A DNA stretch of 64,000 nucleotides from Escherichia coli. GTDB lineage: Bacteria > Pseudomonadota > Gammaproteobacteria > Enterobacterales > Enterobacteriaceae. Every line of letters starts with the position of its first letter. Within the stretch, counting starts at the first letter, position 1. The stretch lies in NCBI RefSeq assembly GCF_044324785.1, contig NZ_CP172127.1; one strand, 5' to 3'. The notes below the pieces were generated by a model that did not search any database, was not told the DNA's origin, and saw nothing but the letters and a program-made list of their open reading frames with translations. Position numbers and translations under genes: made by a program. Shown here piece after piece: positions 17,483 to 19,752 of this stretch.

Positions 17483-19752
17483 GTGTGCCCGGAGTTCAGG
17501 GCGAGCATAGACGCTCAAATGAACCACGAGTCTGTCTGGAATATTGAACCGGTAACTCACGATGAGAAACCCAACAATCCCACCGGGTGTGACGGTGGAG
17601 AACCTGAGCGGCAGTGACCTGCGGCATGCCCGCAGGGTGATGTAACCCGCTGACAACGGGGATTGAGGCGAGATCACTAAGCCGAGATGATCCTCAAGGT
17701 TAAGTACTGAAAGGCTTAAGAATATGAACCCGTTAATCCGCCTCTGTGGGTTGAAAACGTCACCACGGCCTACGTGATCTGACAGGCCGTGCAGGAGGAA
17801 CTGGCAGTGATACGTAAGCACTGCCGGTCGAAGGTGTTTTGACATGTATGCGAAACTCCGGGGCAGCAGCGTCTATCACGCTCGCGTTGCTGACTTCTGC
17901 CAACTTGCGGCAAGCAAGGATAAAGAGTGCGACGGGCAGCCTCCTCAGTATGTCTGAGTCCAGTCAGGCAAACCGGGGAAGGTCAGCGACGGATGTTAAG
18001 GGGGCATGGCTCCGATGACGCGCTGGCTGGCGGAGCTTCCGTAGTAGTCCGCGATGGGGAAAGCCCATTACATGGCGAAGGGAAGCAGTTTGAATGTGTC
18101 TGCGACGTAAATTAACTGACCTAACGAGGTGAAGACCTTTGATAATCAGCGAAATGCAACGCAAGCTTGCCACATGGGCAGCCACCGATCCGTCCCTACG
18201 GATTCAACGGCTGCTGCGTCTGATAACACAACCAGAATGGCTGGCTGAAGCGGCGCGGATCACGCTTTCATCAAAGGGGGCGAATACCCCCGGTGTTGAT
18301 GGCGTGAACAAAACAATGCTACAGGCCAGACTGGCTGTTGAGCTGCAAATCCTCAGGGATGAATTACTCTCAGGCCACTACCAGCCCTTGCCCGCCAGGC
18401 GGGTTTACATCCCTAAAAGCAATGGCAAACTGCGACCACTGGGTATCCCCGCGTTGCGGGATCGTATTGTTCAGCGGGCCATGCTGATGGCGATGGAGCC
18501 GATATGGGAGAGTGATTTTCATACGCTCTCATATGGCTTCCGGCCTGAGCGCAGTGTCCACCACTCGATCCGCACGGTGAAATTACAGCTCACCGACTGC
18601 GGTGAAACCCGGGGACGCTGGGTGATTGAAGGCGACCTGTCCAGTTACTTCGACACCGTACATCATCGACTGCTGATGAAGGCTGTACGCCGCAGGATCA
18701 GTGACGCACGTTTCATGACTCTGCTGTGGAAAACCATCAAGGCGGGACATATCGATGTCGGTCTCTTTCGGGCGGCCAGTGAAGGTGTGCCACAGGGCGG
18801 TGTTATATCGCCGCTATTGTCGAACATCATGCTGAATGAGTTCGATCAATACCTGCATGAGCGCTACCTGAGCGGGAAAGCAAGAAAAGATCGGTGGTAC
18901 TGGAATAACAGTATCCAACGGGGCCGAAGTACGGCGGTCAGAGAAAACTGGCAGTGGAAACCCGCGGTGGCGTACTGCCGCTATGCCGATGATTTTGTCC
19001 TCATCGTCAAAGGCACCAAAGCACAGGCGGAAGCCATCAGGGAGGAGTGTCGGGGTGTGCTCGAAGGCAGTCTGAAACTCAGGCTGAACATGGATAAGAC
19101 TAAAATCACCCATGTTAATGACGGCTTTATCTTTCTGGGGCACAGGATCATTCGCAAACGCAGTCGTTATGGCGAGATGCAAGTGGTCTCAACGATCCCG
19201 CTGGAGAAAGCCAGAAACTTCGCCGCATCGCTGACAGCACTGTTATCAGGCAACTACAGTGAAAGCAAAGTCGATATGGCTGAACAACTCAACCGAAAAC
19301 TGAAAGGCTGGGCCATGTTCTATCAGTTCGTTGATTTTAAGGCCAAAGTCTTCAGTTATATCGACCGTGTCGTGTTCTAGAAGCTGGCTCACTGGCTGGC
19401 CCGCAAATACCGTACAAGTATCGCTTCCCTGATGAGGTGGTGGTGTAAATCACCGAAACCGGGTCAGAGCAAAACGTGGGTTTTATTTGGTAAAACCAAT
19501 CACGGCAAGCTCAGCGGCGAAATACTGTACCGGTTGGTGGGGCAAGGCAAGAAGCTGTTCCGCTGGCGGCTACCCGAAGGTAATCCCTATCTGAGGACGG
19601 AAACCAGAAAGACGTATACATCGCGCTTTACAGAAGTGGCAATGGCGTTCGCCAGCGTTTAAATGGAGAGCCGGATGCGCTGAAAGGTGCATGTCCGGTT
19701 CGGGGAGGAGAGGCAGGGAAATAGTCCGACTACGCCCTGCCTCTTACTCTAC
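17483..19752 (+). ncRNA. Group II intron, about 2270 nt, with internal reverse-transcriptase/maturase ORF
   Basis: Starts GTGTG and ends CTAC; joining the flanks restores IS3 OrfB (ITY-L-RTDEGW); domain V-like GAGCCGGATGCGCTGAAAGGTGCATGTCCGGTTC at about 19667..19700, followed by a domain VI-like stem GAGGCAGGG...CCCTGCCTC. Confidence 0.75.
18139..19662 (+). pseudogene. Group II intron-encoded protein (RT/maturase), interrupted by one in-frame TAG at 19378..19380
   Basis: RT motifs (GVDGVNKTML, LRPLGIPALRDRIVQ, YADDFVLI) in ORF 18139..19380; maturase-like continuation in the same frame 19381..19662. Confidence 0.8.

Follow-up and report, generated by a model that had tools for sequence, protein, structure and literature searches.

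The 2,270-nt insert at positions 17483-19752 of the window (the whole 64-kb stretch of DNA analysed here) is, judged by its sequence, E.c.I4 at full length; this known mobile group II intron, of bacterial class A, here resides in the IS3-family element ISEc16. The explanation we favor, with a probability of about 0.88, is that this copy was disabled after insertion by a TAG codon in the maturase domain X of its IEP and can neither splice nor move autonomously. It is an ordinary and already known copy, catalogued in 2012 as E.c.I4-25 and carried in RefSeq as a pseudogene.

The insert begins with GTGTG (17483-17487) and ends with CTCTAC (CTAC at 19749-19752), in keeping with the GUGYG 5' and AY 3' boundaries of group II introns. 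Deleting 17483..19752 leaves a single OrfB frame, ...GAC ATC ACG TAC T|TG CGT ACC... (...WVGDITY-L-RTDEGW...), which runs to a stop at 20202-20204; the predicted ligated ISEc16 orfB junction would read …ACGTACT|TGCGTACC…. When alternative excisions were translated, a shift of 1 nt at either boundary destroyed the frame. An intron start at 17484 was rejected, since of the three excisions translated only that of 17483..19752 restored OrfB. Both the coordinates and the translation agree with a preliminary description of this DNA, which had proposed these ends and an exact restoration of the frame upon removal.

The same description placed the intron in IS3 orfB. The insertion is indeed in the orfB of an IS3-family element, and in sense orientation, but the element is not IS3. 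With its exons joined, it is 98.6-98.9% identical over the full length (1,243-1,244 nt) to uninterrupted copies annotated as “IS3-like element ISEc16 family transposase,” against only ~81% identity with IS3 proper; on these comparisons, we assign the host to ISEc16, an IS3-family member rather than IS3 itself. ISEc16 and its intron span 16722..20234 (1,243 nt of insertion sequence plus 2,270 nt) on the + strand, as do all features given here. IS3-type terminal inverted repeats lie at 16722..16747 (TGATCTTACCCAGCAATAGTGGACAC) and 20209..20234. Between them are orfA (16784..17083, 99 aa), the orfB 5' exon (17080..17482, ending ...W-V-G-D-I-T-Y plus T), and the orfB 3' exon (19753..20204), whose first base, T, is the presumed IBS3. 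As is typical of the IS3 family, orfB overlaps orfA in the -1 frame, and an A-AAA-G slippery motif lies at 17044-17051, within CCAAAAGG and inside orfA; carrying its role over from IS3, we take this motif to be the putative frameshift site. The joined OrfB contains CVESFF and a second motif, which together supply the DDE residues of an IS3-family OrfB. No 3-bp target-site duplication surrounds ISEc16 (GAC flanks it on one side, CTC on the other), because a 3,030-bp deletion ends at the left inverted repeat.

The reference copy E.c.I4-10 in IAI39 (NC_011750 489783-492052) has the same length as the window intron and 98.6% identity with it. Since this value exceeds the threshold of the naming rule, by which copies that are >95% identical share one intron name (PMC3552965), the insert belongs to E.c.I4. 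By published classification, E.c.I4 is a class A intron, and class A is among those whose IEPs lack an En domain (PMC3552965; the class is also given in Table S2 of PMC3522654); Pfam likewise finds only RVT_1 and GIIM in the IEP, with no HNH or endonuclease domain. E.c.I4 is found at a specific position in the transposase genes of the IS3-family elements IS629, IS911, ISEc16, and ISEc31 (PMC3522654), and here it occupies the D-I-T-Y codons of ISEc16, the same site as other copies. Nearly all of the 17 related copies with a readable 5' flank (down to 66% identity) are located at a D(I/V/F)TY site; the exceptions are one in which D replaces Y and one that lies ~2 nt further downstream. Two other names were considered and set aside, namely, E.c.I5, a class CL1 intron on pO157, and E.c.I2, which targets Rhs-associated insertion sequences, both according to the literature; E.c.I4 fits the sequence, length, and target. 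Among 5,426 complete E. coli genomes, 2,668 have these 2,270 nt with an identity of 95-100%, so the intron features described here are not a product of chance. What the window copy lacks is the intact IEP open reading frame of an autonomously mobile E.c.I4; it is an E.c.I4 by descent and not an active member.

The exon-binding sequences show how E.c.I4 may have recognized its target. Assigned by complementarity and position, IBS2 (ACATCA, 17471..17476) pairs 6/6 with EBS2 (UGAUGU, 17638..17643), and IBS1 (CGTACT, 17477..17482) pairs 4/6 with EBS1 (CGUAAG, 17813..17818, in the loop of the hairpin at 17803-17825), with mismatches at -1 and -5. EBS2 is kept across relatives, and the EBS1 6-mer covaries with the 5' exon, giving 5/6 pairs in a Pectobacterium copy and 6/6 in each of two Marinobacter copies (L034 and L035; G-U counted). 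The window's EBS1 also pairs 6/6 with the pJKHS016 target CTTACG, and the 3' exon begins with T at +1 in 15 of 16 copies. E.c.I4 would thus have entered ISEc16 by retrohoming at the D-I-T-Y codons, its usual target in IS3-family orfB, using both pairings and the T at +1. The imperfect EBS1/IBS1 match was considered as a block to splicing and rejected, since an intact E.c.I4 copy (L004, CGTATA) likewise matches at 4/6 in IAI39, where E.c.I4 has multiplied recently.

The IEP is encoded in domain IV, as expected of a group II intron, from an ATG at 18154 to a TAA at 19660-19662 (18154..19662), and RefSeq (PGAP) annotates it as an ltrA pseudogene with an “internal stop.” It is related to LtrA (E = 4.5e-52) and has an RT domain (RVT_1, residues 86-332) followed by GIIM/domain X (residues 356-426); comparison with solved structures aligned the RT part only. 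Both the YADDFVLI motif and the in-frame TAG reported in the preliminary description are present, the latter at 19378-19380, codon 409 of 502. The TAG had been thought to separate the RT from a C-terminal maturase part. The nonsense codon is genuine, but it lies inside GIIM; it truncates domain X itself and drops the C-terminal 94 residues, for a predicted product of 408 aa. Functional evidence for the C-terminal extension comes from class D, not from class A (PMC3552965). Codon 409 is TGG (Trp) in all 15 of the other full-length relatives examined. An intact allele of the same locus (P0004, 65 contigs; carried, for example, by the TGG strain 135, CP080260.1) differs from the window copy by 1 nt in 2,270, the TGG/TAG base. 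The TAG is thus a recent G-to-A loss, since the intact intron at the same locus differs by that single base.

From the position of the stop, a product that breaks off within domain X and lacks the entire C-terminal extension would have no maturase activity. Since group II introns need an IEP with both its RT and X domains for splicing in vivo (PMC4424553), the window copy should be unable, alone, to splice or move. The intron would then be retained in the mRNA, and ISEc16 would yield no OrfAB transposase unless a second E.c.I4 in that cell supplied an IEP that restored splicing. The preliminary description had anticipated that splicing and transposase production would depend on a maturase supplied in trans, both elements being otherwise immobilized, and this is what is generally expected of group II introns in vivo.

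The order of events could also have been the reverse, with a ribozyme already dead before the nonsense mutation; the TAG would then have arisen because constraint was gone and would not itself explain the immobility. Comparison with group II intron models, which had been suggested as a check, shows a well-supported fold. An RNAalifold consensus built on 13 relatives (66-99% identity) comprises 166 pairs, with 97.2% of cells paired and 78 pairs showing compensatory change; none of 500 shuffles scored as high, and slid controls gave 14-26 pairs. Covariation backs domains I (17488..17977, closing helix 17488-17492/17973-17977), II (17978..18031), and III (18035..18086), as well as the domain IVa stem-loop (18116..18149), which lies directly 5' of the IEP start codon and, by analogy with other group II introns, is a putative high-affinity IEP binding site. 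Positions 19666-19752 match Rfam RF00029 at 64 bits (gathering score, 40; E = 2.8e-10). Domain V (19668..19701) is a 34-nt hairpin with the AGC triad, a GAAA loop, and a 2-nt AU bulge at 19691-19692, and in domain VI (19704..19750) the branch-point A bulges out at 19746, a distance of 7 nt from the 3' splice site (7-8 nt is expected).

Domains V and VI were thus rightly described as intact looking, but the lineage carries four uncompensated helix mismatches: 17717/17937 (U.C), 17535/17964 (U.U), 17835/17857 (U.U), and 18100/18110 (C.A). Mainstream E.c.I4 has no such mismatches; among the closer relatives (at least ~78% identical), of which only one lacks an intact open reading frame, the number is 0-3, not far below four. 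In addition, of the 16 full-length relatives compared, only the window copy has U at 19692, the other 15 having an AC bulge; at 77 loci that share the 5' half of domain V, this base is C in 54, A in 20, and T in 3. We rejected this C-to-U change as a catalytic lesion, since AU falls within the “AY” bulge consensus, has a spliceosomal counterpart in AU (PMC4424553), and is common to the allele with the intact open reading frame.

That intact allele also has all four mismatches, as a ribozyme lost first would predict. In the same direction, the coding changes specific to the lineage are 4 non-synonymous and 3 synonymous, plus the nonsense codon, and the sub-lineage copies whose context was examined (part of the 63 records at >=99% identity) are all at this one locus. 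On the other hand, other relatives with intact open reading frames carry 1-3 mismatches, each mismatch here is single within a longer helix, the AU bulge fits the consensus, and 4 versus 3 coding changes are too few for a test of selection. The ribozyme may be fully competent despite its mismatches; we consider its prior death a serious but doubtful alternative to inactivation by the TAG.

Inactivation by the TAG would be of less consequence if an intact E.c.I4 IEP acted in trans, sustaining splicing at a useful level so that ISEc16 is not really immobilized in strains with a helper. Intact E.c.I4 has the very same domain IVa and start-codon context, and bacterial IEPs that act in trans on ORF-less relatives are documented (PMC4424553). 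The search for intact copies of the same IEP, also proposed beforehand, found a potential helper in at least one natural strain, EF5-18-41 (GCF_016944675.1): its chromosome bears the TAG allele, and a plasmid carries an intact E.c.I4 (WP_001189111.1, 98.6% identical to the TAG copy) in ISEc31; in addition, seven chromosomal places match the intron. Yet a preference of IEPs for acting in cis has been described (Cui et al. 2004, cited in PMC4424553), and rescue may therefore be inefficient. The intron copy is the only matching place in 13 of the 30 best-matching chromosomes, a count confined to chromosomes; the chromosome of the TAG strain XDL (CP043033), for one, has no second E.c.I4, and a search for a second IEP within the 64-kb window found none. 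ISEc16 itself has no target-site duplication and adjoins a deletion, and the contexts examined showed no recognizable daughter copy of the intron's sub-lineage. Rescue of this kind is conceivable in some strains, but as a general account of the locus, we regard it as unlikely.

The surroundings suggest that the disabled element is simply inherited with its locus. ISEc16 lies in a decayed genomic island (PAPS reductase/ibrB ... sodC), and in the window lineage, the 3,030-bp deletion to its left removed the fragment E.c.I4-tr2 and part of an ibrB-like gene. A further fragment, at 20235-20328, was considered as an intron at a different IS3-family orfB site; alignment with the exon-intron junction of IAI39 ruled this out, showing that the site is the canonical one and that 47 bp are deleted across the junction. 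Transmission of a decayed element along with its island would be an ordinary stage of retroelement decay. All four combinations of TGG or TAG with the presence or absence of the neighboring deletion occur at the orthologous locus. One could speculate that retroelement inactivation was selected: by fixing both the intron and ISEc16 in position, the TAG allele would have been advantageous and would have spread through recombination; we think this very improbable. If it were true, public genomes would offer matched TAG and TGG strains, with and without a helper E.c.I4, for tests of trans-acting maturase and of “selection-driven extinction.”

Read-through of the TAG, by a suppressor tRNA or leaky termination, could in principle yield enough full-length IEP for autonomy. 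Nothing specific points to it: the frame past the TAG is open to the normal TAA, as expected of a recent mutation, and this openness says nothing about selection, because only a single base separates this allele from its intact counterpart. In natural isolates of E. coli, amber suppressors are unusual and basal read-through of UAG is low; the chance that read-through restores autonomy seems slight indeed. Finally, a sequencing or assembly error that masks an intact IEP, which the preliminary description had allowed for, can be dismissed: 43 complete-genome records from many laboratories, hosts, and years, the 2008 SMS-3-5 genome included, are 100% identical across the TAG, truncated IEP products are recorded on 350 and 72 contigs, and the SMS-3-5 copy was reported with a disrupted open reading frame in 2012.

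Beyond correct annotation, the importance of this copy is slight. It illustrates how a bacterial group II intron dies, as a full-length copy in a decayed island with a single inactivating point mutation, and such decay fits the extinction model proposed in the literature for Enterobacterales introns. As a by-product, there are public strains that carry TAG or TGG, one base apart, some with an intact E.c.I4 elsewhere; these are suited to asking whether a class A IEP splices a sister copy in trans.

Among known systems, the closest is E.c.I4-25 of SMS-3-5 (NC_010498 3241200-3243470), an orthologous copy in the same ISEc16 and the same island, with the same TAG and 99.91% identity over 2,270 nt. 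It was listed as full length with a disrupted open reading frame and as “inactivated ... within ... large MGE” (Leclercq & Cordaux 2012, PLoS One 7:e52268, Table S3; PMC3522654). Two substitutions separate it from the window copy, whose lineage also has the 3,030-bp left deletion. Active E.c.I4 (E.c.I4-10 of IAI39; WP_001189111.1) shares with the window copy its length, ends, EBS1 and EBS2, domains V and VI, and an IS3-family orfB target, at 98.6-98.7% identity. It differs by 30-32 substitutions, which include TGG to TAG at codon 409, together with seven other amino acid differences, the four uncompensated mismatches, and a domain V bulge that is AU rather than AC in the window copy. The ykfC locus of E. 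coli K-12 (E.c.I4-tr1, in the CP4-6 prophage) is likewise a decayed E.c.I4 in an IS3-family element that is inherited vertically, but it is a 1,764-bp truncation, whereas the window copy is full length with a single point lesion. By description, RmInt1 of Sinorhizobium meliloti (class D, in ISRm2011-2) is also an endonuclease-less intron that homes to an insertion sequence and whose inactivated copies pile up in its hosts; it is set apart from E.c.I4, again by description, by its ORF class and its insertion sequence target.

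The intron begins with GTGTG (17483-17487), ends with CTCTAC at 19752, and is 2,270 nt long. Excising 17483..19752 rejoins the orfB exons exactly (...ACG TAC T/TG CGT...) in a single frame that runs to the stop at 20202-20204; when alternative excisions were translated, a shift of either boundary by 1 base lost the OrfB frame. The ORF for the intron-encoded protein (IEP) starts at ATG 18154, would terminate at TAA 19660-19662, and carries an in-frame TAG at 19378-19380, codon 409 of 502. All coordinates in the preliminary description were exact. It had named the host as IS3, which holds at the level of the family: the orfB is of IS3-family type, but the element is not IS3 proper (only ~81% identical). 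Once joined, the host sequence (16722-17482 plus 19753-20234) is 98.6-98.9% identical over its full length to uninterrupted elements annotated "IS3-like element ISEc16 family transposase," with IS3-type inverted repeats, a 99-aa orfA, an A-AAA-G motif, and DDE-region motifs in the joined OrfB.

Domains V and VI are confirmed by a match to the Rfam group II intron model (RF00029, 19666-19752; 64 bits, gathering score 40). By folding, domain V (DV) is a 34-nt hairpin that is capped by a GAAA loop and has a 2-nt bulge, and domain VI has a bulged A at 19746, 7 nt from the intron 3' end. Scanning the 5' half of DV against one genome per species yielded 77 loci, including full-length relatives in Citrobacter (96% identity), Kluyvera (92%), and Pectobacterium (91%); more distant full-length copies occur in Marinobacter and its relatives (~78%) and in a Bacteroidetes MAG, Burkholderia, and others (66-70%). 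We derived an RNAalifold consensus of 166 pairs from an alignment of 13 upstream intron halves, which delimits domains I (17488-17977), II (17978-18031), and III (18035-18086) and the DIVa stem-loop (18116-18149). Pairing is preserved by two-sided changes in 78 of these pairs, and 97.2% of the alignment cells are paired; no shuffle out of 500 reached as high a value, and the number of such pairs in slid controls was 14-26. Absence of a recognizable domain I-IV structure, named beforehand as an outcome contrary to the preliminary reading, is thus excluded.

EBS2 (UGAUGU, 17638-17643) pairs at 6/6 positions with ACATCA (17471-17476), and EBS1 (CGUAAG, in a hairpin loop at 17813-17818) pairs at 4/6 with CGTACT (17477-17482). 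The EBS1 assignment is backed by a 6/6 match at another E.c.I4 site (CTTACG in pJKHS016) and by covariation of the aligned 6-mer with the exon, which matches at 5/6 positions in the Pectobacterium copy and at 6/6 in each of two Marinobacter loci, L034 and L035 (G-U counted). Of 16 copies, 15 have T at exon position +1. An intact-ORF copy in E. coli IAI39, a genome in which E.c.I4 has recently grown to 15 copies, likewise scores 4/6 for EBS1, so the exon context of the window intron is no bar to splicing.

Nearly all relatives, down to 66-70% identity, are inserted at the D(I/V/F)TY codons of IS3-family transposase genes, as surveyed in the 5' flanks of L034, L035, L030, L061, L064, L075, L014, and L041 (loci from Marinobacter, Burkholderia, a Bacteroidetes MAG, and others); the L061 insertion lies ~2 nt downstream. 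The differing EBS1 sequences of L034 and L035 are altered to fit their exons. Given this shared site and the tracking of the exon by EBS1, homing into this conserved DDE-region motif seems to characterize the intron lineage as a whole.

Is the nonsense codon real, and how old is it? A 601-nt stretch across the TAG is 100% identical in 43 complete-genome records, and truncated IEP products are on record from 350 contigs (413 aa, from TTG) and 72 contigs (408 aa, from ATG). An otherwise identical IEP with Trp at residue 409 is recorded on 65 contigs; this intact allele occupied the same locus in all eight places fetched, and its intron differs from the window intron by 1 base in 2,270, G instead of A at 19379. 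Codon 409 is TGG in 15/15 other full-length relatives examined. Because of these identical records, the one-base intact allele at the locus, and the TGG of the relatives, the TAG is a real mutation, derived in a single step at this locus once the intron had inserted. The preliminary description placed it between the reverse transcriptase and the maturase part, which does not hold: residue 409 lies shortly past the LKGWAMFYQF motif within the maturase domain GIIM (356-426), so the stop truncates domain X itself, with loss of the last 94 residues. IEP-promoted splicing in vivo requires both the RT and X domains (PMC4424553 and its reference 38), and from the position of the stop, maturase function would be lost. 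The overall interpretation, in which splicing would depend on a maturase supplied in trans or on read-through, is supported with minor corrections.

The stop is not the only change. About 14 substitutions are specific to the lineage of the window locus, with the ancestral state judged from relatives. Four leave uncompensated helix mismatches, at 17717/17937 (U.C), 17535/17964 (U.U), 17835/17857 (U.U), and 18100/18110 (C.A); three of these positions are paired in all other aligned sequences, and 17835/17857 is also unpaired in one other locus (L064). Across the 166 pairs, mainstream E.c.I4 has no mismatches and relatives at ≥ ~78% identity have 0-3. Lineage-specific coding changes comprise four nonsynonymous and three synonymous substitutions plus the stop. 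Apart from the stop, the intact-ORF allele has every one of these lineage-specific changes. This pattern fits relaxed constraint, which possibly set in before the nonsense mutation, in numbers too small for proof. The DV bulge is AU in the window copy versus AC in all other full-length relatives; it falls within the published AY consensus (PMC4424553) and was therefore not counted as a lesion. The second bulge base (19692) is U here, a state common to the intact-ORF allele, and C in 15 other full-length relatives; among the 77 loci sharing the DV 5' half, 54 have C at the equivalent base, 20 have A, and 3 have T.

A search of the 64-kb window for a second IEP found none, and the window-locus copy is the sole intron match on 13 of the 30 best-matching chromosomes. 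The chromosome of strain EF5-18-41 (GCF_016944675.1) carries a window-type locus with the TAG allele, and the strain also has an intact E.c.I4 (IEP WP_001189111.1) in ISEc31 on plasmid pEF5-18-41_1. Since the DIVa region is identical in the TAG-allele intron and intact E.c.I4, and bacterial IEPs act in trans on ORF-less relatives, yet prefer cis (PMC4424553), rescue in trans may be possible in some strains.

The locus, a transposon graveyard, belongs to an island with PAPS reductase, ibrB-like, and sodC genes. A relic of a second, older E.c.I4-like intron (20235-20328, minus strand) is ~90% identical to intron positions 32-118 and occupies the canonical insertion position in another IS3-family orfB (minus strand, adjoining 20329-~20960); a 47-bp deletion spans and removes its 5' splice junction. 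Insertion of ISEc16 into the relic has produced a nested arrangement, IS > intron > IS > intron. Compared with SMS-3-5 and strain ECCNB12-2, the window lacks 3,030 bp; at 16720-16722 the deletion directly abuts the left inverted repeat of ISEc16, and it removes the published fragment E.c.I4-tr2. It explains why the 3-bp target duplication of ISEc16 is absent (flanks GAC and CTC) and why the ibrB-like gene (ORF 16203-16697, minus strand) is truncated. All four combinations of deletion state and TAG or TGG occur among E. coli genomes (L001, L083-L089, and L091), at sites only 2.6 kb apart (16721 and 19379), which implies recombination between alleles or recurrence of one change. Strain 135 (CP080260.1), which has the TGG allele, carries another full-length E.c.I4 in the island, 4.3 kb upstream and with its IEP intact (L082, 1018-3286); being 98.2% identical, it belongs to the mainstream lineage and is not a daughter of its neighbor. 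Two Rfam families of Hfq-binding sRNAs match above gathering score at 6057-6199 (isrN, 138 bits) and 24660-24781 (STnc490, 129 bits), both on the minus strand.

Of 5,426 complete E. coli genomes, 2,668 contain the 2,270 nt at 95-100% identity, and the intron is also present on >2,000 plasmids from Escherichia, Klebsiella, Salmonella, Enterobacter, Citrobacter, and others. E.c.I4-10 of IAI39 (NC_011750, 489783-492052; Table S3 of PMC3522654) has the same length, is 98.6% identical to the window intron, and encodes WP_001189111.1, as do the plasmid copies. E.c.I4 belongs to ORF class A, among the classes without a D/En region (Toro and Martinez-Abarca 2013, PMC3552965). In agreement, Pfam detects only RVT_1 (86-332) and GIIM in the IEP, whose RT portion shows a relationship to LtrA and to further group II intron RTs of solved structure. 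The orthologous copy lies in E. coli SMS-3-5 (NC_010498, 3241200-3243469), where a 99.91% identical intron shares the TAG, ISEc16, and the island. That copy is E.c.I4-25 in Table S3 of Leclercq and Cordaux (2012), who state that it "exhibit[s] a disrupted ORF" and group it with inactivated copies in large mobile elements (PMC3522654); the window copy is the one already on record under that name. RefSeq (PGAP) labels it an ltrA pseudogene with an "internal stop" in every genome inspected. Overall, both the intron and its host IS are known, and the lesion has been listed in the literature as well as flagged by RefSeq.
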